This document shows, in pieces, positions 367 through 37,928 of a DNA stretch of 64,000 nt. Origin of the DNA: Cenarchaeum sp. (GTDB taxonomy: Archaea; Thermoproteota; Nitrososphaeria; Nitrososphaerales; Nitrosopumilaceae); the NCBI GenBank assembly GCA_965206845.1, contig OZ242221.1, positions 736,001 to 800,000 of the forward strand. The letters run 5' to 3'. Position 1 is the first letter of the stretch. Every line of letters starts with the position of its first letter. Under the pieces are notes generated by a model. It ran no database searches. It was not told the origin of the DNA and saw only the letters and a program-made list of their open reading frames with translations. A program made the translations under genes and the position numbers.

Positions 367-2143
367 TCTTGACCCGAACATCGCGGGGATTGACCTTGGC
401 AAGATCCTGCGCCTCCCGGGAGTGCCTGTGGAGCTTGATGTAGCCGTTCTTGCCCACTTGGTCCGAGAGGATTACCTCATCGCCTGCGAGTATGTCGGCT
501 TCCATTCCACCGTACTCCCGCCCCACCATGAGGCACAGGGAGCGCTTTGACTCGGATATGCGAAGTGGTATCTCCGACGGCACCGCTGCCTGCTCCCTCT
601 CCTGTATGTCTATGCGAACCTGGAGCTGCTTCTCCAGCTCGGTTATCTTGGAGCCGCCGCGGCCGATTATAGCAGGTATGCATCTTTTGCCCACCCGGAT
701 TCGGACGCTGTTGCCTGACAGCACCTCGATCTGGGCATCGGGGTCAAACCGCCGAAATGTCTCGGTAATCTTCTCCTCAACCAGCTTGTGCATGTCGTGG
801 CCCTGGGTAACCGGTATGACGACATTCTCCTCGCCAAAGGTGTAGATCTCGTACTCCAGTATGCCGTCCTCAAAGTCGCGAATCTCGATTACCGGCCGTG
901 CCAGATCCTGCTCCACCATTCCAGAGGGAACCTTGATCTTCAGTTCCAGCTGGTACACCTTGTCGATCTGCCCGTACTTGACAAAGACCACGGTATCCAG
1001 GACGCTGGGAATGATGCCTAGCTCTATCTTGCCCATAAAGCGCTGAATCGAGTCCAGCGGGGCGCTGGCGTGCACCACGCCGACCATGCCCACCCCAGTA
1101 AGCCGCAGATCCGAGAATATCGTAAAGTCTTCGCGCCTCCTTATCTCGTCAAATATGGTGTAGTCGGGCCGGACAAGCATCAGTATGTCTGCCGAGTTTT
1201 CAAAGGAGCCGTCCAGCCTAGTGTACTGTGTGACTGCCCGGTCCACCTGCAGATCTCGCGGCGACTCGAAGGTCTTTACTATCTTTCCGGAGGAGTGGTA
1301 AAAGTTTGCAAGGCTCGATGCCAGGGTGCTCTTGCCGGAGCCCGGTGGTCCTGATATCAGCATGCCCTCGGCCTGCACGGTCAGTCTTGTCATGAGCTTC
1401 TCAGATATGCCATAATCCTTTAGGGACATCCGGACTGTGGGATGCACGATAGTAATCTCGTACTTTTCTGAGAAGGGCATCTGGGTGATGGCTATCCGGT
1501 AGTCGCCGTGCTGCACCACTAGCGCCCCGGGCTTGGATATCTCAACGTTCATCCCGGCCCTGGAGGACTCGAGTATCTGGGTGGTAATCTCGTGCAGGTA
1601 GTCCCGTGTAAGGGCCACATCCCCTGCTGGAACGAGCTCAAAGTGTCCCGGCTTGCCCCTCTTTGCCATGGCCGGCAACCCCTCCTTGAGGTGCACGCTC
1701 ATGGTCTGGGCATCAAAGTACTGCAGGAACTCCATCTGCTCATCCCTGGGAGTGGGATGCTGGAGGCTGACGGTGACTCCCTGAACCTCCGCCACCAGGG
1801 ACTGGACGCGGTCCGATGTATACAGTATGGCACTGTTCTGCACCGCAACATCCTTGATTATGGCGTCAATGCGCCCGCGCTCTGAGAGACTGACATCGTC
1901 CGCGCTAGGCCTTGATCCTGCAAATCGAATCTGCAGGTCAAAGCCTGCAGCCATCTCCTTTATCTTCCTGATCTCCTCCAGGCCGATAAAGCCCTCCTCC
2001 TTTTTTTGTGCGGCCTGGGACTGCAGCTCGTCTATGACGGCCTCGGGAATTATAATCTCCGAGCCTTCAAAGCCGCCGGATCTTATCAGCTCGGTAATCC
2101 GTCCGTTGATAACTATGCTTGTATCTACAACTATCTTATCCAA
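353..2143 (-). CDS. PIN-domain ATPase with C-terminal KH domain (PINA/VapC-ATPase)
   Basis: N-terminal PIN 'IVVDTSIVI...PEAVIDEL', Walker A GPPGSGKST, 'FDEIRR', KH motif IIGRGG. Confidence 0.9.
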   Translation of the reverse strand: MDKIVVDTSIVINGRITELIRSGGFEGSEIIIPEAVIDELQSQAAQKKEEGFIGLEEIRKIKEMAAGFDLQIRFAGSRPSADDVSLSERGRIDAIIKDVAVQNSAILYTSDRVQSLVAEVQGVTVSLQHPTPRDEQMEFLQYFDAQTMSVHLKEGLPAMAKRGKPGHFELVPAGDVALTRDYLHEITTQILESSRAGMNVEISKPGALVVQHGDYRIAITQMPFSEKYEITIVHPTVRMSLKDYGISEKLMTRLTVQAEGMLISGPPGSGKSTLASSLANFYHSSGKIVKTFESPRDLQVDRAVTQYTRLDGSFENSADILMLVRPDYTIFDEIRRREDFTIFSDLRLTGVGMVGVVHASAPLDSIQRFMGKIELGIIPSVLDTVVFVKYGQIDKVYQLELKIKVPSGMVEQDLARPVIEIRDFEDGILEYEIYTFGEENVVIPVTQGHDMHKLVEEKITETFRRFDPDAQIEVLSGNSVRIRVGKRCIPAIIGRGGSKITELEKQLQVRIDIQEREQAAVPSEIPLRISESKRSLCLMVGREYGGMEADILAGDEVILSDQVGKNGYIKLHRHSREAQDLAKVNPRDVRVKIRAS

Positions 2144-2423
2144 AAACGCTAATCGGTTTTGCTGTTTTTATTGCTCACTTAAGTTTTTAGAATCGAGCTA
2201 CGCCTAACATGGCATCGGTCCACCTGCCGTCCGAGACTGGCGCTATGGCTAGCCCGAAATTAGCGTGCCCGAGTGCAGGGCGTGACTGCATATCCGGCAG
2301 ACCCGCGGCCGCGTCCTGCCGTGATCACGGCAGGGATCGGACTGGCCCGTACCTTGCGCAAGAATGGAAATCTGTGAAACCAAAAAAGTTAGGTTTATTA
2401 CCAGATTACAGGAATTAAGGTAA

Positions 2424-3683
2424 ATGAACATTAGAATACTGTTCACAACATTAATTGCCGGCATGCTTGTTGTAGGCGCCGCTCCTTCAGCCTGGGGCTC
2501 TGCCCAGCTGGACGCGCTGATAAACCCCAACAACAGCGAGTCACCATTTGAGATCAAGTACCAGCGATCGGTCTTCATCGAGTACGAGGACGGCGGTCAG
2601 ATCGCAGATGCCCTGAGAGGCGCCAGTGGCTCGTTTGCGTTCACGCAATCTGACGGCGACCCGGAGGTGGAGAACCTCAAGGGACTGATCAACCAGAACA
2701 TCCGGTCCGCCCAAAGCCCCACCAGCATCAAGGAACTCAATGTCGACTATCTGGTGACCCTCAGCGGCAACCAGGAGCTGACATCCATAGACTACAAGAT
2801 TGTGCTCACCGGCACGTTGCAGGATTACATAATCGTTGAAGGCCAAGGAGCCGGGAGATCCATCATCGATATAGGATGGAGGGATCTCACGGCAGACGGC
2901 CCAGTTAGCATGCAGGGAGGAGAGATCAACCTCCCCATCAGTGCCATAGACCAGCTGGCTCCCGATGTGGCAGCGGTAATCCAGGGCGAGGCCAGGGATC
3001 TTTTGGAGCGGCCGCTCATTGATGCAGCCCAGATCCACAACCAGCCCATTGCAACCTGGCACTTTCTGTTTGATGCCACGGGAATAACCGAGGATGCGCT
3101 CCAGTTCGGCCTGTCAGAGGAGATCGCCGGGTTTGTGGTGTCCAAGTTCACCATGGGAGAGAGCAGCATCAGAGAGGGGATAAAGATAGAGAGGGAGTTT
3201 GAGGCCACATTTACCCATGACAGAGAGTACACCGTCAGAACCCTCGAGTCATCAGACAGTGCCAGCCTGTCCGTAATCGGATTTGCAGTAGGAGACAGTC
3301 TGGATGACACCGAGGTATTAGGGGTAACGCCAGAACCGCCGGAGGGAACCTCGATCAAGCCAACAGGCGACTTTCCCGTATTCATCATATACGGAATGGC
3401 AGGACTGGCAGCAGTGGGCGGCGGGGCGTTCTTCCTGTTCAGCAACAGGGCCCTGAAAAAGGAGGCAAACATGGGACAGCAGGGAATCGATCCGTCCAGA
3501 CTTACAGCGTACCAGACCAGCTCGAGCGCGGGCGGCTATCAGACCAACAGGGCAGAGGCACAGCTCAAAGTCGGCGACGACTACCAGAAGCACCGGAGCG
3601 TGTACGACGAGGCGCAGGACTCGCAAAAGGATGATGACGACACGCCACAGAGTACCAAGGGCGCCATGCCCAAGGGCTGGTAG
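2424..3683 (+). CDS. Secreted, C-terminally membrane-anchored hypothetical protein
   Basis: Signal-peptide-like N-terminus, acidic body, TM segment 'VFIIYGMAGLAAVGGGAFFLF'; TATA-like TTTATTA at ~2394. Confidence 0.75.
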   Translation: MNIRILFTTLIAGMLVVGAAPSAWGSAQLDALINPNNSESPFEIKYQRSVFIEYEDGGQIADALRGASGSFAFTQSDGDPEVENLKGLINQNIRSAQSPTSIKELNVDYLVTLSGNQELTSIDYKIVLTGTLQDYIIVEGQGAGRSIIDIGWRDLTADGPVSMQGGEINLPISAIDQLAPDVAAVIQGEARDLLERPLIDAAQIHNQPIATWHFLFDATGITEDALQFGLSEEIAGFVVSKFTMGESSIREGIKIEREFEATFTHDREYTVRTLESSDSASLSVIGFAVGDSLDDTEVLGVTPEPPEGTSIKPTGDFPVFIIYGMAGLAAVGGGAFFLFSNRALKKEANMGQQGIDPSRLTAYQTSSSAGGYQTNRAEAQLKVGDDYQKHRSVYDEAQDSQKDDDDTPQSTKGAMPKGW

Positions 3684-4118
3684 CAAGAGTTAGTGCGTGC
3701 CAGTAGTAACCCTCCTTCTGTTTTCACGATATTCAGCTTTGCAGTCCACCTGAGCCGGTTACAGGAAACCGTTGGCTCCGTTTGACCTTGCTCCATGTGG
3801 GACAGATCTTTCACTCCATGCTTGGAAACCTCAGGCTTTGGGGCCATCACCGTACGCCAAGCCGGATCTTTTTCTGTTCTGTTGCCTGCCATCTCTGACA
3901 ACCCATCTCCAGGCCACATCTCCTGTATGGAGGGAGGAGTTTCCTCTGCCGTGGCAGCATGTCGCGCTCTGGCTCGCACCACACCTGCTATGCATCGCAC
4001 AAATTTGAACATTTCTGTGGTGTGTGAACCAAAAAACCGCCGCAGGGCAGCGTGGCAGGTCGCACAAACCGGCACGGCCTAGAAAGAGATATTATCGTTC
4101 TCTGGATCCTACACTGTA

Positions 4119-5696
4119 TTGTTTTTAGTATTGGCAACGGCAGCCTGTCTTGTTATTCTGGCAGGATATGCATACCAGGGCGCGTCTGCCGAGCCTGTCC
4201 TCCATGACGAGGGCCTGATCCTCGAGAGGTACGTCTCCGGCCTCTGCTGCGGAGTGACCACCATGGAGTTCATAGATCAAGACACCCTGCTGGTTCTGCA
4301 GAAGAACGGCAAGGTCAGGCTGGTTCGCGACGGACTCCTGCAGAGCGAACCGGTTCTTGTGGTTGACACCCAACCCGTCAGGGAAGCAGGCCTGCTCGGG
4401 ATTGCCGCCGTCAACTCCACGGTGTACATTTACTATACAGCGACCATCGGCGAAGATCGACTGTTAAACAGGATTTACAAGTACGCATGGGACGGGGATG
4501 CCCTGATCAACCCGGTCCTGGTCAAGGAGCTTCCCGCGAACCTGTACCACAACGGCGGGGCGATGATAGCAGACCAAGACGGCCAGGTGTACGCCGTCAT
4601 AGGCGACACGGGCAGGTACGGGCCGCTCCAGAACAAAAAGCTGGAGAACCTGTTCCCTCCAGGAATCACCGACTACCTGGACACCGGCGTGGTTCTGCGG
4701 GTCGATCCCGAAGGCCCGTACTGGGCAGTGGGCATCAGGAACAGCTTTGGCCTTGCCATCGATCCGCTTACCGGCAACATGTGGGACACGGAGAACGGCG
4801 ACGATGACTACGATGAGATCAACATGGTGCCAGACGGGTTCAACAGCGGATGGCAGGCCATCATGGGCCCGGCAACACAGGAGGAGCTGGAGCGCCTCAT
4901 CGGGTACGGGGACTACCAGTACCAGGATCCAAAGTTCAGCTGGAAGCGCACGGTTGCTCCCGCCGGCATAGGCTTTGCAAACTTTGAGGAGACAGACGAG
5001 TACGACAGCTCGGTCTTTGTGGGAGACTGCAACAACAGCCGCCTCTACAGGTTTCAGCTGAACCCGGAGCGCGATGGGTTTGTGTTCACCAGTCCCGGCC
5101 TTCAGGATCTTCTGGCAGATGAGGGCGACTCCATGGATGAGATCATAGTCGGCACCGGTCTTGGATGTATTACCGGTATCAGGACTGGGCCTGACGGCTA
5201 TTTGTACCTGGCAAGTCATGTGGAGAATGTGATCTACAGAATTCTGCCCGCAGAGGCGGCGAGATCCCCCGAACCGGCGGATCCGCCAGGCGGCGGGTGC
5301 CTCATCGCCACAGCGGCATATGGCACGGAGCTGGCGCCGCAGGTGCAGCTCCTGCGGGAGACCCGGGACGGACGGCTGCTCTCCACCGCATCCGGGGCGG
5401 CATTTGTCTCTGCATTCAACTCCGCATACTACTCGTTCTCGCCTGCAGTCGCTGACCTTGAGAGGGAGAGCCCGGCCCTCCGCGAGGCGACAAGGCACAT
5501 GATCACCCCGATGCTGTACTCCCTGTCGCTGATGACGCTGGCAGACGAGGGCTCGGAGCTGCAGACTGTGGGGCTGGGCATCTCCGTGATTCTGCTGAAC
5601 CTGGGAATGTACGTGGCAGCCCCCGCGGCGGCGGCATGGCAGATCAGGAGGCGGCTCCTTCGGCCGTCGGCCGCACAGGGCCCGGCCGGCAGATAG
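4119..5696 (+). CDS. PQQ-dependent glucose/sorbosone dehydrogenase-like beta-propeller with C-terminal CFI-box-CTERM domain
   Basis: 'EAGLLGIA', 'HNGG', 'GIRNSFGLAIDP', 'DTENG..DEIN' motifs; 'GGGCLIATAAYGTELAPQVQLLRE' CFI-box and terminal TM. Confidence 0.85.
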   Translation: MFLVLATAACLVILAGYAYQGASAEPVLHDEGLILERYVSGLCCGVTTMEFIDQDTLLVLQKNGKVRLVRDGLLQSEPVLVVDTQPVREAGLLGIAAVNSTVYIYYTATIGEDRLLNRIYKYAWDGDALINPVLVKELPANLYHNGGAMIADQDGQVYAVIGDTGRYGPLQNKKLENLFPPGITDYLDTGVVLRVDPEGPYWAVGIRNSFGLAIDPLTGNMWDTENGDDDYDEINMVPDGFNSGWQAIMGPATQEELERLIGYGDYQYQDPKFSWKRTVAPAGIGFANFEETDEYDSSVFVGDCNNSRLYRFQLNPERDGFVFTSPGLQDLLADEGDSMDEIIVGTGLGCITGIRTGPDGYLYLASHVENVIYRILPAEAARSPEPADPPGGGCLIATAAYGTELAPQVQLLRETRDGRLLSTASGAAFVSAFNSAYYSFSPAVADLERESPALREATRHMITPMLYSLSLMTLADEGSELQTVGLGISVILLNLGMYVAAPAAAAWQIRRRLLRPSAAQGPAGR

Positions 5697-11944: not shown

Positions 11945-12278
11945 CTGCTGCCCGCAATTCCAAATTAAACGCTTCGATATTTTTTGCCGCGCAGCGGTTT
12001 TAGGAACCACTCCGCGATCCAAGAACCCCGGCGGCGCCGGCCACCTGTCGCATCCGGTCAGGCCCAAAGGCGCCCCACAGCGTGTACGCCGGTGCCCGGA
12101 TAAGAGAGGAGCCGGCCCGATATCCTTTGGGGGTTTAAAAAGGGAATTATATACTTCGGTAGGCATGACCACGCGCCTCCCGCGGATGGGGTTTTTGTTT
12201 GGATACCTTCACATGGCATCCGCTCCCATCCGGGAGCCAGTAACCTGCCACCCCCGGATGGCCATGACGGTTCGGACT

Positions 12279-12296
12279 GTCTGCATGGTCTGCATG
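12279..12296 (+). repeat. Two tandem 9-bp GTCTGCATG units upstream of the tnpB promoter
   Basis: Exact tandem repeat; the homologous position in copy 2 has four units. Confidence 0.8.
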
Positions 12297-12310
12297 GTAT
12301 TGTCGCGGTG

Positions 12311-12318
12311 TTTTTATG
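12311..12318 (+). promoter_or_regulatory. Putative TATA box of tnpB copy 1
   Basis: TTTTTATG about 25 nt before ATG 12343; conserved as CTTTTATG in copy 2. Confidence 0.55.
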
Positions 12319-12342
12319 CGCGCTTGGCATTTGCATGCGGTA

Positions 12343-14067
12343 ATGAGACCCATCATGGCGGCCGCGACAGCAACAGTGTTAGCGGCGACGGCAACCGCAA
12401 CGGCAACCGAGCCGGCGCCAAAAAAGTGGTCAAGGCGCCCAATGGAGGGCACCATGGTGCGCACCATAAAGGTGGACTTTGACCAGTCGGCCGAGCTGTC
12501 AGATTTGATATCCCGCCGCATGGACCAGCAGAGGTGGGCCTTCAACATGGCCGTCCGCGAGAAGCTGAACGACCCGAGAACGACAAAGTATGACCTCAAC
12601 AAGATGCTCACCAAATGGAGGAATGAGAAGAAGTGGCTCGTCCATGACAAGGACGCGCTGGCCGCAGGACGCAAGGAGGCCTGTAACAACAGGGTGCAGA
12701 GGACCGGGCTTCGCCAGGGCCTGGACGCGGTGGAGAAGTTCATGATATCCAACGGCAGGAAGCGCCGCAACAAGTCGGTGTGGAAGTACCTGGCCAAGCT
12801 CTATCGGGAAAGGGAGGCGAGGAAGGCCGCCAAGATGTCACGCAACAGTGGGGGCGGCGATGGCGGCGCCCAAAATGAGGCAAGCGGCGCCGACGCTGGC
12901 GCAAGCCTGCCGTCAAACAAGTGGAGCAGGAAAAATAACAAGTGGCGCCGCAGGGACACCCTGTTCAAGAGGAAGGGGAAAATGTGGTCCCTGTCGGTGT
13001 TCGAGAAGCCCGTATACAAGGGCGGCAACACGGTCATGCTCCCCGGTATAGGCACTGTAAGGGTGCACGGCGACGTTGAGGATCTGGACATGCGCCCCTT
13101 CCAGCTCGTGGAGACGACCAAGAAAACAACCAAGCGCACCAAAGATCACCACAAGACTTACCGCCTCCACATCCAGGTTGAAACCAAGGCACCAGAGCCG
13201 TCCGAACATGCGGTCATCAGGGGCGTGGACATGGGCATAGTCCACGGCGCCGCCACCGTCGACCTTGGCACCGGCCATCACAAGTTCCACGACCTCCCAA
13301 ATGGCTGCAGGAGAGCCAAGAACGACGACATATCGAAGATGTACTCGGAGCTCTCGCAAAAGAGGGGAGGGAGAGGCAACCGCAGGATCAGGCAGGACAC
13401 CAATGAAGGCGCCGACGGCAGGAACAACACGAGCGGCAACAACAGGAACAAAACAAGGAAGCCCAAGTCCCGCGGCTACAGGGAGCTCCAGAGGAAGATC
13501 CGGAAGAAGCGCGAGAAGATCGCCAACTGCCAGACCAACTGGGAGAGGCACGCGTCCAAGGAGATTGCGGACGGCGCCGGCACGGTGGCCATCGAGGACC
13601 TGAAAGTCAAGAACATGACCGCTAGGGCCAAGGGCAAGGGGAGCTCCGCCAAGACGGGGCTCAACCGCGAGATGGCGTACTCAAGGCCAGGGACTTTCCA
13701 GCGCCAGATCATGGGCGCCTGTGAGAACGCGGGAGTCATCGTCATAACGGTGGACCCCAAGGGCACCAGCATAACATGCCACAAGTGCGGCCACAGTGAC
13801 AAGGAATCCAGGATATCCCAAGGGAGGTTCCGCTGCGCCAATGACAAGTGTTACAATGACGTCAACGCCGACATAAACGCGGCGCATAACATTGCCTCCA
13901 AGGCGACAGCCATGGCGGCAGGGCGGCGGGGATCGTCGTCCCAAGGCGCGAGACTCCGGCGCGGGATTGCTCCCGCGCGTTCCGCAAACAGCACGCGAGA
14001 AGCAAGCGTGGGAGGGATTGCAAGAGCGCCAGAAAAAGGCAGGGGTACTGCGTACCCATGTATATAA
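12343..14067 (+). CDS. tnpB: TnpB-like RNA-guided RuvC nuclease, about 570 aa
   Basis: 'QQRWAFN' helix, RuvC-I GVDMG, RuvC-II IEDL, 'AKTGLNR', Zn finger CHKC..CANDKC, RuvC-III NADINAAHNI; stop codon lies inside the right TIR. Confidence 0.92.
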   Translation: MRPIMAAATATVLAATATATATEPAPKKWSRRPMEGTMVRTIKVDFDQSAELSDLISRRMDQQRWAFNMAVREKLNDPRTTKYDLNKMLTKWRNEKKWLVHDKDALAAGRKEACNNRVQRTGLRQGLDAVEKFMISNGRKRRNKSVWKYLAKLYREREARKAAKMSRNSGGGDGGAQNEASGADAGASLPSNKWSRKNNKWRRRDTLFKRKGKMWSLSVFEKPVYKGGNTVMLPGIGTVRVHGDVEDLDMRPFQLVETTKKTTKRTKDHHKTYRLHIQVETKAPEPSEHAVIRGVDMGIVHGAATVDLGTGHHKFHDLPNGCRRAKNDDISKMYSELSQKRGGRGNRRIRQDTNEGADGRNNTSGNNRNKTRKPKSRGYRELQRKIRKKREKIANCQTNWERHASKEIADGAGTVAIEDLKVKNMTARAKGKGSSAKTGLNREMAYSRPGTFQRQIMGACENAGVIVITVDPKGTSITCHKCGHSDKESRISQGRFRCANDKCYNDVNADINAAHNIASKATAMAAGRRGSSSQGARLRRGIAPARSANSTREASVGGIARAPEKGRGTAYPCI

Positions 14068-14072
14068 TTCCC
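13920..14072 (+). ncRNA. Putative omegaRNA scaffold overlapping the tnpB 3' end
   Basis: Conserved in three copies with compensatory stems (13959-13978 and 14043-14057); position matches known TnpB omegaRNAs; boundaries approximate. Confidence 0.65.
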
Positions 14073-19088: not shown

Positions 19089-19390
19089 GGGAATTATATA
19101 CAAAAGTACACGGTACTTCTGCCTTTTCTTGGCGTTCTTGCAATCCCTCCAACGCTTGGTTCTCGCGTTTGGTTCACGGAGCGTCCGGGAGCAATCCCGG
19201 CCTGGAATCTCGCGCCTTGGGACGACAATCCCTGCCGCCTTGACGGCAATGTTGTGCGCCGCGTTTATGTCGGCGTTGATGTCGTTCTTGCACCTGTCGT
19301 TCGTGCAGTGAAACTTTCCCTGCGACACCCGGGAGTTTTCATCCCTGTGCCCGCATTTGTGGCATGTCGTGCTGGTGCCCTTGGGGTCCC
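19089..19390 (-). mobile_element. Truncated right-end remnant of the TIR-tnpB family (copy 3)
   Basis: GGGAATTATATACAAAAGTA from 19089; encodes DPKGTSTTCHKCGH...NADINAAHNI; no left end or second TSD seen. Confidence 0.88.
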
Positions 19391-20027
19391 ATGTGTGGTA
19401 CCAGGTTCGCAGTTCTGCCTCCCTCCGGCCGCGCCGCTGCAAGTGCGCTGTCCATCAAAGAAAGGGCTCACAGACTTGACGCGGCTCATGGAGCCGCTAC
19501 GTACGCGCGAAGCGGATCGTGATCCTGCGCAGGAGGTCGCGTCATACGCCTGTCCGGTATGCGCATGCAGGAGAATCTCTGCGCCCGACCCGTAGCGGAG
19601 CATGGCGCGCCTCAAAGTCGTCCGCTAGATCTCATCCTTGTCTTGGTCGTTGTCCCAGAGATGCATCGTTCCCCGTATCATAAAGGAACCCACAATTATG
19701 GCCACAAGGCCGCCCACTACAAAGACAAAGAACCTTCCCACATCACCTACAGAGGCCAACACACATGGATCCCCTACCGTGTAATCAAGTCTTTCTATAA
19801 TCCATTGGGTAGGTATTTTTAGCGCAGATATCCCTGGTATGCCATGAGCAAGGCAAAGCGCGTCGCCGCCTGGGTCGGAATACTTGGAGGCGGCATCGGC
19901 TTTTACTTCTTCTACGGATATGTAGCAGAGCTGATGCGCTAGGCCTGCCCGATCCACAGATGGGCCGCGCGGCCGGCACGGGATCCAAGCCGCGGGGTCA
20001 GACTTAACTACCATACGCCGGTGGGTT

Positions 20028-33893: not shown

Positions 33894-34598
33894 CTACTGG
33901 CGGAACTCCGGCCGCCACCGCCTGGACATCTTCTCATCCATATCGTCTGCCAGAGCATCCAGATCTGAGATGTCGCCCAGTTTTTGGAAGGTAAGCTTCT
34001 GAAGCGTCTGTATGACGCTCTTTGCGGCCCGGTATTGGGGCACGCCGGGATCGTTGAGCTCTCCGTACAGCCCGATTCCCCGAACGCCGCAGGCCATTGC
34101 GTACCCTAGAACCAGGCCGTTGAAGCCGGTGATCAGCGACCTCTGGGGCGAGAGATCAAAGCCGGACTTTTGCAGCTGTCCGGCAATCTCCTTGGAGGTT
34201 GAGGTGACAAACGTCCGCGGAGATCTCTGCAGCTCCCTGTCTGTGTGAAACCCGCCCACGGTGTAGATGAACTTGGCCGAATACTTTTTTGCCACATCGA
34301 CCACATCCTGGCACACGTCGTGCAGCTCCTGGATGCTCTGCGGCTGGCCCGCACTCCCGCCGAATATGATCAGGCTGTCGGTGCAGGTGTACCACCACTC
34401 CTCTTTTGCCATGCTTATGTAGCCGCCGTTGTCCACCACGTATCCCGGGAGGGATGATCTTGCAGATCTAAAACGCCTGCACTTCAGATGAGCGTTGACA
34501 AAGTCCACCACTATACTACCCACGTTGCCCATATCCTGCATTGCTGCTATGACTATGGGTTTTTGCAGATTCGGCTCCTTCTCCTGAATGAACTCCAC
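33894..34598 (-). CDS. PAC2-family proteasome assembly chaperone-like protein
   Basis: 'DMGNVGSI', 'IYTVGG', 'ITGFNGLVLG', 'GLYGE'; GTG start at 34598 with TATTAAT 23 nt upstream. Confidence 0.85.
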   Translation of the reverse strand: MEFIQEKEPNLQKPIVIAAMQDMGNVGSIVVDFVNAHLKCRRFRSARSSLPGYVVDNGGYISMAKEEWWYTCTDSLIIFGGSAGQPQSIQELHDVCQDVVDVAKKYSAKFIYTVGGFHTDRELQRSPRTFVTSTSKEIAGQLQKSGFDLSPQRSLITGFNGLVLGYAMACGVRGIGLYGELNDPGVPQYRAAKSVIQTLQKLTFQKLGDISDLDALADDMDEKMSRRWRPEFRQ

Positions 34599-34642
34599 AT
34601 ATGGAATCCGGCATCTTTGGATTAATAGGTTAGCTTGAATCA

Positions 34643-34800
34643 GGGAATTATATACAAAAGTAAACGGTACTTTTGTCTTTTTCTGGCGCTCCGGCGATCC
34701 CTCCCATGCTTGGCTCTTGCATGTCGTTTGCGAAACGCGCGGGAGCAATCCCGCGCTGGAATCTCGCGCCTTGGGACGACAATCCCTGCCGCCCTGCCGT
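34643..34800 (-). ncRNA. Putative omegaRNA scaffold, copy 2
   Basis: Homologous to the right ends of copies 1 and 3 with conserved and covarying stems; boundaries approximate. Confidence 0.65.
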
Positions 34801-36279
34801 CGCCATGACGGCAATGTTGTGCGCCGCGTTTACGTCGGCGTTGATGTCGTTCTTGCACCTGTCGTTCGTGCAGTGGAACTCCCCCTGCGATGTCCGGGAG
34901 TCCTTGTCCTTGTGCCCGCACCTGTGGCATGTTGTGCTGGTGCCGCCGGGATGGACGAACACGACCATCACGCCGGCGTTCGCGCATGCGCCCTCGATCC
35001 GCATTTGGAACGTCCTAGGACGCGAGTATGACATCTCCCTGTTGAGCCCCGTCTTGGCGGAGCTCCCATTGCCCTTGGCCCTAGCCGTCATGTTCTTGAC
35101 TTTCAAGTCCTCCATGGATACGGTTCCTGCGCCGTCCGCTATTCTCTTTGACGCGTGCCGCTCCCAGTTCGTCTGGCGGTTGGCGACCTTTTCACGCTTC
35201 CTTTGGATCTTCCTTTGCAGATCCCTGTAGCTGCGGGACTTGGGCCTGTCGCGCCTAGCCTCCCTGTTGATGCTGTCCTGCCCGCAGGTCTTGTCCTGTT
35301 TGCCGGACTTGCCGTTCTGCCTGATGCGCCTGTTGCCGCTACCTCCCCTCTTTCGTGAGAGCTCCGAGTGCATCTTGGATATTTTGTCGTTCTTGGCGCG
35401 CCTGCAGTCCTTTGGAATGTCATGAAATGTATGGCTGCCTGTGTCCAAGTCTACGGTTGTGGCTCCGTGGACGATGCCCATGTCGACTCCCCTGATGACC
35501 GCTGACTCTGATGGCTTTGGAGCCCTGGTTCTTGTCTGGATATGTAGGCGGTACGTCCTGTTGCAATCCTCGGTGCGCCTCGTGATCCTCTTGGTGGTCT
35601 CGACGAGCTGGAAGGATCGCATGTCAAGCCCCTCCACGTCGCCGTGGAGCCTTACCGTGCCGACACCAGGCAGCATGATTATGTTGTCGCCCTTGGGCAC
35701 GGGCTTCCCAAACACGCACAGAGCCTGCCTTTCACGCTTTCTCCTGAACAAATCATTGGCGTGGCTCCAGCGGTTCCTCTTGTTGCTCCACCTGTTCGAT
35801 GGCAGGTTTGCGCCGGAGCCGTCGTCATTTGCGCCATTGTCGGAGCCGTCCCCGTCCCGACGTATCAACTTGGCCGCCTTTTTCACCTCCATTTCCCTGT
35901 CCTTTATGGCCATGTTTTTCCACATGATTTTGTTGGAGCGCTTTGTCACGTTTGACTCCAAGAACTTCAGAACGGCCTCCCTTCCCTGGGCAAGCTCGGC
36001 CCTCTGCACCAGTACGGGGCCGTCAAGCCACCTGTTTCCACTTCTCCATTTTGTAAGCTTGTTATAAAGGTCAAATCTGGTTATTGCTGGATCCTTCAGC
36101 GTCTTCTCCACGGCCATGTTGTAGGCCCATCGCTGCTGGACAATGAGGCGCGATATGAGAACCGACAGCTCCCAGGACTGGTCAAAGTCAACCATTATGG
36201 TGCGGACCATCGTGCCGTTCCCTGCGGGATTTGGCCTCATTTCTGGCGCCGGCGCGGTTGCAGTTGCTGTTGCCACCAT
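34648..36279 (-). CDS. tnpB: TnpB-like RNA-guided RuvC nuclease (543 aa)
   Basis: GVDMG / MEDL / NADVNAAHNI catalytic motifs, CHRC..CTNDRC Zn finger; diverged paralogue of copy 1. Confidence 0.92.
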   Translation of the reverse strand: MVATATATAPAPEMRPNPAGNGTMVRTIMVDFDQSWELSVLISRLIVQQRWAYNMAVEKTLKDPAITRFDLYNKLTKWRSGNRWLDGPVLVQRAELAQGREAVLKFLESNVTKRSNKIMWKNMAIKDREMEVKKAAKLIRRDGDGSDNGANDDGSGANLPSNRWSNKRNRWSHANDLFRRKRERQALCVFGKPVPKGDNIIMLPGVGTVRLHGDVEGLDMRSFQLVETTKRITRRTEDCNRTYRLHIQTRTRAPKPSESAVIRGVDMGIVHGATTVDLDTGSHTFHDIPKDCRRAKNDKISKMHSELSRKRGGSGNRRIRQNGKSGKQDKTCGQDSINREARRDRPKSRSYRDLQRKIQRKREKVANRQTNWERHASKRIADGAGTVSMEDLKVKNMTARAKGNGSSAKTGLNREMSYSRPRTFQMRIEGACANAGVMVVFVHPGGTSTTCHRCGHKDKDSRTSQGEFHCTNDRCKNDINADVNAAHNIAVMATAGRQGLSSQGARFQRGIAPARFANDMQEPSMGGIAGAPEKDKSTVYFCI

Positions 36280-36481
36280 AGATGTGATTCGTAATTAGCA
36301 CGCAGGCATATTAGAGCACGATCTTTGGCATAATCATACGAAAGTTGCATGCTTTGGAGCACACATCTGTAAGATTATGGGCATCGAAGGCCCGATTCTT
36401 AATTGCGGATCATGTCTCATGATGATTGATTTCATTACCGCATGCAATATTCCACACCGCATAAAAGCGCCGCGACTATAC

Positions 36482-36517
36482 CATGCGGACTATACAGACC
36501 ATGCGGATCATGCAGAC
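36482..36517 (-). repeat. Four tandem 9-bp units (consensus GTCYGCATG on minus strand)
   Basis: CATGCGGAC-TATACAGAC-CATGCGGAT-CATGCAGAC on the plus strand. Confidence 0.8.
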
Positions 36518-36669
36518 AGCCCGTACCGTCACGGCAGCCAATGCCGCCGCGTTTGCCCATGCGGTCACGGCCGTCCAGAACGTTACGCAGGCATCGCGCA
36601 AAGGTAGCGCGTGGGAGAGAGCCGGAAAAGGCAGAAGACCCGTTTACTTTTGTATATAATTCCCTTGAA

Positions 36670-37707
36670 TCACGCGGGAATCTCGTCGAGCTCAAAGTTG
36701 TGTTCCACAAAATACTCAACCCGCGTCTTTTTAAACTCCCGGGAGCTGAACAGGATTCTGTACTCGTCTACGTCGATCTGCCCCTGTATGGTGCCTGCCA
36801 TCTCCCGGGCCTCATCCTCTGACTTGCAGTGGATCATGGAGAAGACGTTGTAGGGCCAGTCCGGGTACACGGGCCTCTGATAGCAGTGGCTGACCTGTGG
36901 GAAGGCCCCCAGCATGCGGCCGACCTCCTCAACCCTGCCTTCTGGCACCTTCCAGACGATCATGCCGTTGGCCGTAAAGCCTGCGTCCCGGTGACGTAGG
37001 ATTGCCGCAAACCTGCGCATGACTCCGATCTCCTCGTAGTGCCTCAGCCTCTCAAATATCATATCCTCGGTCATGCCGAGACTCTGCGCCGCAGGCAGGA
37101 ACGGCCGGTCAGATATCGGCAGATCCTTCTGCAGCTCCCTTACAAATGCCCGGTCTTCCTCGGTGGGCTTGAACTTTGCGTCCCGGATGTTCTTCTCCGG
37201 CTCGCTGGGGGCGACCGCATGCTTTTTCTCCTCGACCATCTCAAGCTTTACCCCGATCTTGAACAGCCGAATGGTTGGAAGCATCCGGATCTTGACAATG
37301 CCTGGAATTCTTTTAAACTTGTCAATCTCTGTCTTCAGATCCGAGCCCGGGGACACTGCCAGTGTAAACCACAGGTTAAACTCGTGATCCCGCTCGTAGT
37401 TATGGCTCACCCCGGGATGGCGGTTTACCACTGCCGCCACGCTCTCCAGCTCCTCTGGCACTATCTGCATTGCAACCAGCGAGCTCCTGTAGCCCAGCCT
37501 GCGCGTGTCAAAGATTGCGCTGAGCTGGCGCAGGACGCCGGACCTTTTCAGCTTCGTCAGCCTCTCCTTTACCGCATACGGCGTGATGCCAAACTTTTCT
37601 GCGATCACATCAAAGGGCCTGGCCGTCAGAGGAAACGTCCACTGAATTTCGTTGAGAATCTCCCTATCCAGACTGTCCATACCGTGGCCAAACTCGGTGA
37701 CCGGCAT
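36670..37707 (-). CDS. Siroheme decarboxylase AhbA/AhbB (NirDL/GH-like) fusion
   Basis: Two Lrp-like halves with 'VSHNYER..EFNLWFT' and 'VSHCYQR...WPYNVFSMIH'; next to hem genes. Confidence 0.88.
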   Translation of the reverse strand: MPVTEFGHGMDSLDREILNEIQWTFPLTARPFDVIAEKFGITPYAVKERLTKLKRSGVLRQLSAIFDTRRLGYRSSLVAMQIVPEELESVAAVVNRHPGVSHNYERDHEFNLWFTLAVSPGSDLKTEIDKFKRIPGIVKIRMLPTIRLFKIGVKLEMVEEKKHAVAPSEPEKNIRDAKFKPTEEDRAFVRELQKDLPISDRPFLPAAQSLGMTEDMIFERLRHYEEIGVMRRFAAILRHRDAGFTANGMIVWKVPEGRVEEVGRMLGAFPQVSHCYQRPVYPDWPYNVFSMIHCKSEDEAREMAGTIQGQIDVDEYRILFSSREFKKTRVEYFVEHNFELDEIPA

Positions 37708-37928
37708 TTCAATTAAAAATGTACCGTACAGGGACAGGCTGCATAGCTTGCGCCCACACAGACTGAGGCAGGGGATGCCTCCCGCCAAGAGCTGCCGTCC
37801 CGGCGCCCACGCCGTTTTGCCCAAGCCGCAAAACGCGCCTTCGTCGGATCCTGCGTGGAGGGCTGCGGCCAGGCCACGACGGCACAAGAGAACCCAGGAA
37901 TAAATACGAGTCATACGCCAACACAGCA

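Follow-up and report, generated by a model that had tools for sequence, protein, structure and literature searches.

According to a 2026 review, TnpB is associated chiefly with Y1 and serine transposons, which leave no scar; its association with DDE transposases is relatively low, and a cut-and-paste element may not benefit strongly from carrying it (PMC13565253). DDE-associated TnpB is already known as a kind, however. Altae-Tran et al. (2023) described six DDE-associated branches in which TnpB lies inside transposons with inverted terminal repeats and the tnpB 3′ end is at most 250 bp from the transposon end (PMC10691335). In the same account, the ends of solo TnpB elements resemble those of transposase-carrying relatives, which suggests that solo TnpBs are probably mobilized in trans. 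The partner named in the main text of that paper is IS630, and the 2026 review names ISL2, IS630, and IS1031. IS1595 is named neither in that main text, whose supplementary files may list such a branch, nor in the review's list of partners, and no paper in our literature search joined TnpB with Nitrosopumil* or, judged by titles and the opening of abstracts, treated IS1595 and TnpB as one element. Here, we describe a 2,022-bp mobile element at positions 34643-36664 of a 64,000-nucleotide stretch of Cenarchaeum sp. DNA (contig OZ242221.1, positions 736,001 to 800,000 of the forward strand; referred to as the window). Its sole long open reading frame (ORF) is tnpB, which ends 5 bp from the element boundary. 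We think it probable that this element is a nonautonomous DNA transposon with the inverted ends of the IS1595 family of DDE transposons, in which a cargo of tnpB and a guide RNA replaces the transposase, and that it would move and persist by the steps set out below.

The IS1595 family, like the eukaryotic Merlin elements, is characterized by 8-bp target duplications, which most members make, and by inverted ends starting GG; its transposase combines a zinc finger with a DDE_Tnp_IS1595 domain (PMC8101967), and the same zinc ribbon and DDE_Tnp_IS1595 domains were found by Pfam in the transposases of the partner elements described below. Unlike a typical member, the copy studied here has no transposase and carries a predicted RNA-guided nuclease and a structured RNA as cargo. 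In ISfinder, the ISNwi1 group has ends like "ggnnatTAT" and 8-bp repeats, and members with passenger genes are listed. A second point of comparison is the IS1341-type element of the IS200/IS605 family, which also has tnpB as its sole gene, a guide RNA that presumably overlaps the 3′ end, and many diverged singletons per genome, as in haloarchaea (PMC3119063). Those elements rely on a Y1 TnpA, carry subterminal hairpins, and lack both inverted ends and a duplication, whereas the elements described here have inverted ends and 8-bp duplications in a genome without a Y1 gene. The serine-recombinase TnpA and the lack of inverted ends and duplications that define IS607 were likewise not what we found. 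Finally, Fanzor proteins are TnpB homologues that reside in eukaryotic DDE-type transposons with inverted ends and duplications (PMC13565253). The present element differs from them in being archaeal and in having its RuvC-II glutamate about 60 residues before the zinc finger, which is the canonical arrangement, instead of 6 residues as in Fanzor (PMC13565253).

The boundaries of the element could be read directly. A perfect 25-nt inverted repeat, GGGAATTATATACAAAAGTAAACGG, lies at 34643-34667 (plus strand, on the tnpB 3′ side) and at 36640-36664 (minus strand, on the tnpB 5′ side), and an inverted match of this kind was seen in 0 of 100 dinucleotide shuffles. Beyond nucleotide 25, the similarity of the two arms was imperfect and extended to about nucleotide 41. 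The arm on the 3′ side carries the final seven codons and the TAA stop of tnpB (34648-36279, minus strand; 543 amino acids [aa]; P0001). The element is flanked by an 8-bp direct duplication, TTGAATCA, at 34635-34642 and 36665-36672. Inverted ends starting GGGAATTATA together with an 8-bp duplication are the pattern of IS1595-family DDE transposons. Based on an inspection of ORFs and Pfam matches, the only features between the ends were tnpB and a nested repeat; a transposase gene belonging to the element was not found inside it.

A reading made previously from the letters of the window (the sequence-only reading) had taken this locus to be an insertion and had named misassembly at the junctions, or an empty allele that did not collapse to a single target, as observations that would speak against it. 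Contigs from DNA runs X13, X16, and X11, which came from three studies, bridged both junctions and excluded misassembly. A second contig from X16 joined 34633 to 36664, skipping 2,030 bp with 9 letters that fit either side, and X18, an RNA-labeled run from a fourth study, yielded a 394-nt contig that covered 36664-37000 and then continued for 17 letters identical to 34617-34633. The empty allele was therefore present in X16, alongside the occupied allele, and in X18, and in both runs it collapsed to one TTGAATCA, as the test set beforehand required of a true insertion. In the same-genus genome G153, the two genes that flank the element (a PAC2-family gene and an ahbAB-like gene) are adjacent, with about 112 bp between the matched parts compared to 2,141 bp in the window. 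The G153 spacer also contains one TTGAATCA, but at another distance from the PAC2 start, which is suggestive only. The insertion is real and recent, and the occupied/empty polymorphism in present-day samples directly supported the earlier suggestion that the family moved relatively recently.

The same architecture recurred elsewhere in the host genome, which is a single 1.65-Mb contig with 57% G+C and 99.99% completeness. A combination of tblastn and a motif scan identified 15 full-length copies and some fragments, and all 16 TNB-domain matches in the genome fell within this end family. Twelve copies were intact; of the other three, two had a stop or a frameshift and one contained an IS5-like insertion. 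Eight of the 15 had perfect 8-bp duplications and one more had a duplication matching at 7 of 8 positions. We also examined 40 regions around end motifs in five other genomes (G148, G413, G385, G196, and G227) and found 18 elements with 8-bp duplications (13 perfect, 5 with one mismatch). Thus, the combination of inverted ends and duplication, which had been proposed to be reproducible, was found in 9 of 15 copies here and in 18 elements from other genomes. The sequence-only reading had cautioned that a 6-bp duplication with an A-extended inverted end would fit the two copies that it considered, both of which had T-N6-A targets. This caution no longer holds: the first and last bases of the perfect duplications vary among copies, GTTGATCA and CGGTTACG depart from the T-N6-A pattern, and these duplications, together with AATCACAA and others, establish a size of 8 bp. 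The other copy in that comparison lies at 12142-14072 (tnpB at 12316-14067, plus strand, 583 aa; duplication TTTAAAAA), and its protein is indeed a diverged paralogue, being 62.6% identical to P0001 over 554 aligned residues. The claim that the two copies had the same termini was right for the first 13 nt of each end, which are common to both, but the ends differ further in. Across all genome copies, only the first 12 to 13 nt are shared, and the 5′ ends fall into three types.

The protein encoded by the element matched the Pfam families Cas12f1-like_TNB (E = 2.6e-14) and OrfB_IS605 (E = 4.6e-08), and its RuvC-II, zinc finger, and RuvC-III segments aligned with Cas12f and TnpB chains in a phmmer search of PDB. 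The motifs GVDMG, MEDL, and NADVNAA, which contain the D, E, and D residues of the RuvC triad, and a CxxC...CxxxxC zinc finger were conserved in 12 of 12 intact paralogues. By these motifs, tnpB appears to encode an intact RuvC protein that presumably acts as a nuclease. The paralogues were as clearly diverged as had been claimed, with amino acid identities of 58 to 84% and synonymous divergence (dS) of 0.33 to 0.92. The ratio of nonsynonymous to synonymous divergence (dN/dS) was 0.19 to 0.37, with a median of 0.275 (66 pairs, 513 codons), which indicates that the paralogues are under purifying selection and that TnpB is maintained. A wider search found 223 protein relatives at E ≤ 1e-5; among the 120 matches listed, one was 98% identical and the other 119 were 57 to 74% identical. 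Four related genomes of 2.2 to 2.7 Mb (G227, G196, G413, and G211) had very high TnpB loads of 35 to 75 TNB-domain matches per genome, and only part of these matches carried the end motif.

The link to an IS1595-type transposase came from related genomes. Of 301 genomes sampled across the taxonomic family, 18 had the 13-nt end; genus g12 accounted for nine of these (10 genomes sampled) and genus g3 for five (37 sampled), and the tally includes one match in G332, a genome flagged as unpublished on which no other result rests. The motif was not found in G153. In three complete elements, a PF12762 transposase gene lies between ends that start GGGAATTATA, and each element is flanked by an 8-bp duplication. 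One of these, L047 in G211, is 2,046 bp long, has 24-bp perfect ends, a 319-aa PF12762 transposase, and the duplication TTTGGTTT, and is inserted inside another insertion sequence (IS). The other two, L041 and L046 in G227, are each 2,144 bp long and 99.9% identical, with ends that start GGGAATTATAGTG and duplications AAAATTAT and AAAAAAAT. In L066 of G196 (2223-4731), 6 bp separate a tnpB element from a transposase element, and one outer duplication, GGGTCTAG, encloses both; therefore, the two genes moved as one unit at least once. In addition, at 10 transposase loci in G139, G227, G211, and G271, the gene was preceded on its 5′ side by the 13-mer (at most 2 to 3 mismatches), which lay about 475 nt ahead of the match to the DDE domain.

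The host genome has one gene matching PF12762 (DDE_Tnp_IS1595), at G000:C1:27527-28465 (minus strand; positions 1402-2340 of locus L001). It is full length, encodes 313 aa, has a weak match to the IS1595 zinc ribbon, and keeps motifs that we take to be the DDE triad. The product is 57 to 61% identical to four of the five transposases compared and 50 to 51% identical to that of the G196 unit. These observations suggest that the element in the window was probably moved in trans by an IS1595-like transposase encoded elsewhere.

The 3′ end of tnpB looked like a candidate guide RNA. The final 200 nt of 16 genome copies had a mean identity of 81%, and RNAalifold predicted 41 pairs in seven helices. 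In this alignment, 97.4% of the cells were paired compared to 91.2% in shuffles (0 of 500 reached the observed value), pairing in slid controls was at most 52%, and 10 pairs had changes on both sides. Several G-U pairs did not vary and can form only when the tnpB sense strand is the one that folds, which favors RNA over a hairpin in DNA. When 45 loci from other genomes were searched with a covariance model of the final 132 nt, 34 places matched at E ≤ 0.01, and every match lay at the outer edge of a terminal repeat. Among the 18 elements with duplications in other genomes, 16 matched the model, at the 3′ end and on the sense strand. In the model-fitted alignment, 25 of 29 pairs had changed on both sides. 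No match to the model was found in either of the transposase-only elements searched (L047 and L041), and Rfam gave no match at E ≤ 1 in 34300-37000. The terminal hairpin is 11 nt from the element end. Taken as predictions from the alignment, the final ~180 nt of tnpB likely form an omega-RNA that would read into the flank, the putative scaffold being the conserved seven-helix segment at 34643-34824 (minus strand) that runs up to the element boundary, and the layout is as expected for an omega-RNA with a guide that starts at the flank.

If the guide starts at the flank, the base next to it is of interest. We compiled a target set of 27 independent insertions from six genomes (the 18 from other genomes and 9 from this one) and oriented each by its tnpB gene. 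The base directly 5′ of the upstream duplicate (position -1) was G in 24 of 27 cases and never C; the remaining three had A (two cases) or T (one case). The first base of the duplicate was T in 20 of 27. The mirrored places were unbiased (C in 6 of 27, A in 11 to 12 of 27), and Fisher's test of G at -1 against C at the mirrored place gave P = 1.3e-6. A further family element, L126, also had G at -1. Because the two ends are near identical, a bias that depends on orientation implicates the cargo, which is itself oriented. For a guide that starts at the duplication, the place of a target-adjacent motif (TAM) would be taken by this G in the empty site and, once the site is occupied, by the C of ...TTCCC. 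That the G at -1 is the TAM of TnpB is a possibility to which we give somewhat less than even odds. No orientation-specific G beside the duplication is described in the part of PMC10691335 that deals with DDE-associated TnpB.

The following mechanism would account for these observations. An IS1595-like transposase encoded elsewhere, for which the single gene at G000:27527-28465 is the candidate source, would bind the shared ~13-nt termini (GGGAATTATATAC) and cut the target with an 8-bp stagger, which would give the 8-bp duplication. The final ~180 nt of tnpB and the terminal repeat would fold as a sense-strand RNA scaffold, and transcription that leaves the element would add the flank (the duplication and the PAC2 leader) as the guide. 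The TnpB-RNA complex may then cut the matching empty site, where the G is present, and not the occupied site, where the C of ...TTCCC takes its place, and repair from the occupied copy would restore or spread the element. Cutting of empty sites by TnpB would explain why the insertions that are found have G upstream of the duplication in the tnpB orientation. Our proposal that RNA-guided homing by TnpB is coupled in nature to a duplication-making, cut-and-paste DDE transposon, with the duplication and flank as the guide and a minimal TAM of G, usually followed by T, is put forward as a conjecture that may well prove wrong. If it is true, the orientation-specific G is a footprint of nuclease selection on which insertions persist.

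The main rival to the TAM reading is an asymmetric target preference of the transposase. On this account, TnpB is uninvolved and the G at -1 is chosen by the transposition machinery, for example by an asymmetric transpososome that results from subterminal differences between the ends. DDE transposons often favor certain targets, and G was also found at -1 in two of the three transposase-only elements when these were oriented by the transposase. The duplications here are AT-rich in spite of the 57% G+C of the genome, which is also what has been reported for ISApl4, an IS1595-family element (PMC12561309). On the other hand, many of the elements have ends that are identical for at least 20 nt, which leaves little for a transposase to tell apart, and the mirrored position showed no C bias (6 of 27). 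The occupied allele also has C at the critical place, as self-avoidance through a TAM would need. On balance, we regard a target preference as a somewhat unlikely source of the G.

A different explanation is that the copies are immobile relics and that TnpB now serves the host, for example in regulation or defense. Each copy is a diverged singleton, with the closest pair 84% identical at the amino acid level and dS of 0.33 to 0.92 as given above, no transposase lies within the element, and the purifying selection would fit a host function as well. However, the insertion is polymorphic in present-day samples, eight copies have perfect duplications, and G153, from the same genus, lacks any end motif. 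The catalytic triad is also intact, whereas known domesticated TnpB relatives have lost theirs. This explanation therefore seems improbable to us.

We give still less credence to an autonomous element in which both the staggered cut and the insertion are the work of TnpB, possibly aided by host repair. The RuvC fold is RNase H-like, as in DDE transposases, the proteins of 543 to 583 aa exceed the typical size of TnpB, and the element has no other gene. Yet elements that carry an IS1595-type transposase but lack tnpB have these ends too, with duplications that are likewise 8 bp long, and we know of no case of integration catalyzed by TnpB. Least credible of all is the view that a Y1 or serine TnpA moves what is simply an IS200/IS605 or IS607 element of the usual kind and that the repeat and duplication are coincidental: the Pfam label OrfB_IS605 and the abundance of IS1341-type tnpB-only elements in archaea (PMC3119063) fit it, but those families are described as having neither inverted ends nor duplications (PMC13565253), both of which are present in the 27 elements here, and this genome had 0 Y1_Tnp and 0 Resolvase matches at E ≤ 0.01.

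Several observations weigh against the IS1595-TnpB transposon and the TAM that we propose. The transposase is not inside this copy, and the IS1595-like gene of this genome had no recognizable pair of inverted ends (one end-like stretch was seen upstream by eye). When the 10 transposase loci that have an end motif on the 5′ side were scanned for mates, a complete element emerged at L047 alone, and a search for flanking 8-mers gave no mate for the other nine. Only three complete autonomous elements are in hand, two of which (L041 and L046) form one pair of 99.9% identity, and the tnpB and transposase-carrying elements of one genome share only the first 10 to 14 nt of their ends. Six of the 15 full-length copies had no identifiable duplication. 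With respect to the empty allele, the sides of the contigs are short (27 letters in one case, 17 plus 9 letters in the other) and each is weak singly, but the two agree with one another. The RNA-labeled run X18 covered the interior of the element by short mismatched pieces only, which possibly came from paralogues, and an AlphaFold2 model of P0001 based on a 34-sequence alignment was unusable (mean predicted local distance difference test score, 42.8; predicted template modeling score, 0.29). In the case of the TAM, 3 of the 27 elements lack G at -1, the G196 unit has C there, and studied TnpBs have TAMs of 4 to 5 nt, far longer than one conserved G.

What TnpB does for a DDE transposon becomes a testable question with this family. 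It offers 27 independent, cleanly bounded insertions with duplications and an occupied/empty polymorphism in present-day samples. It also offers a compact candidate guide RNA that would end 11 nt past a hairpin, a simple TAM prediction, and archaeal TnpBs of 450 to 580 aa with defined ends that are usable for guide design.

The genes on both sides of the element were examined. The ORF at 36670-37914 (minus strand) has two AsnC-like ligand domains (AsnC_trans_reg2) and two NirdL-like_HTH domains, and it was therefore assigned as ahbAB-like (siroheme decarboxylase type). As the sequence-only reading had noted, its TGA stop (36670-36672) makes up the final 3 nt of the right duplicate and the gene is left intact. 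The gene on the other side, at 33894-34598 (minus strand), matched Pfam PAC2, and its extent was based on in-frame translation and on alignment with G153. It likely starts at the GTG at 34598-34596, 36 nt from the insertion. The PAC2, tnpB, and ahbAB-like genes all have the same direction. A TATA-like motif in the terminal repeat was considered as an outward driver of PAC2 and was dropped after the PAC2 start was corrected to the GTG at 34598.

Additional observations were made on the family and its surroundings. A solo 3′ fragment at 19089-19400 consists of the terminal repeat (one mismatch) and about 300 nt of the tnpB 3′ end and has no mate. The tnpB element interrupted by an IS5-like insertion lies at G000:C1:870565-872715 (duplication TCATGAAA) and shows that transposons nest in the family. 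The ends of the other IS families in the genome (IS5-like, rve-type, IS110-like, and others) were not shared with the tnpB elements. Two of the rve-type insertion sequences, at G000:C1:713940-715005 and 891856-892924, have flanking direct repeats of at least 15 bp, which is unusually long for a target duplication, and their boundaries may be misplaced.

In two of the transposase-carrying elements, L047 (354-1408) and L041 (257-1400), the transposase gene is followed by roughly 1.1 kb of additional DNA. These segments are not related to one another, and neither had similarity to TnpB in a tblastn search with P0001. In G139, the transposase genes at L022 (contig C121) and L025 (contig C160) have a 5′ end motif and are followed by an ORF that is DNA-methyltransferase-like, based on motifs seen by eye. 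No 3′ end was found within 2.4 kb of either gene, and these loci may be larger, cargo-carrying elements. The L126 element (716-4882; 4,167 bp; duplication TAACGTAG) has a tnpB with a frameshift and, nested within the element, a transposase ORF of the IS66 family. It lies on a 31-kb contig (57.7% G+C) of a metagenome-assembled genome titled Dehalococcoidia, which could reflect misbinning or transfer; as a single locus from a related-locus search of genome contigs, it says little about distribution.

The nested repeat mentioned above is about 141 bp long, resembles a miniature inverted-repeat transposable element (MITE), and lies at the tnpB start codon (36277-36420, with a boundary ambiguity of 3 nt). 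About 35 copies with at least 91% identity were present in the genome. The repeat is polymorphic in the population: it was missing from contigs of X16 (36276 joined to 36418; side, 255) and X13 (36277 joined to 36420), and read depth peaked there. Between it and the 5′ inverted end is a noncoding 5′ region (36421-36639, minus strand) that contains the original upstream start of the tnpB frame. With the MITE-like repeat removed, the tnpB frame would begin 14 codons further upstream, like those of two paralogues.

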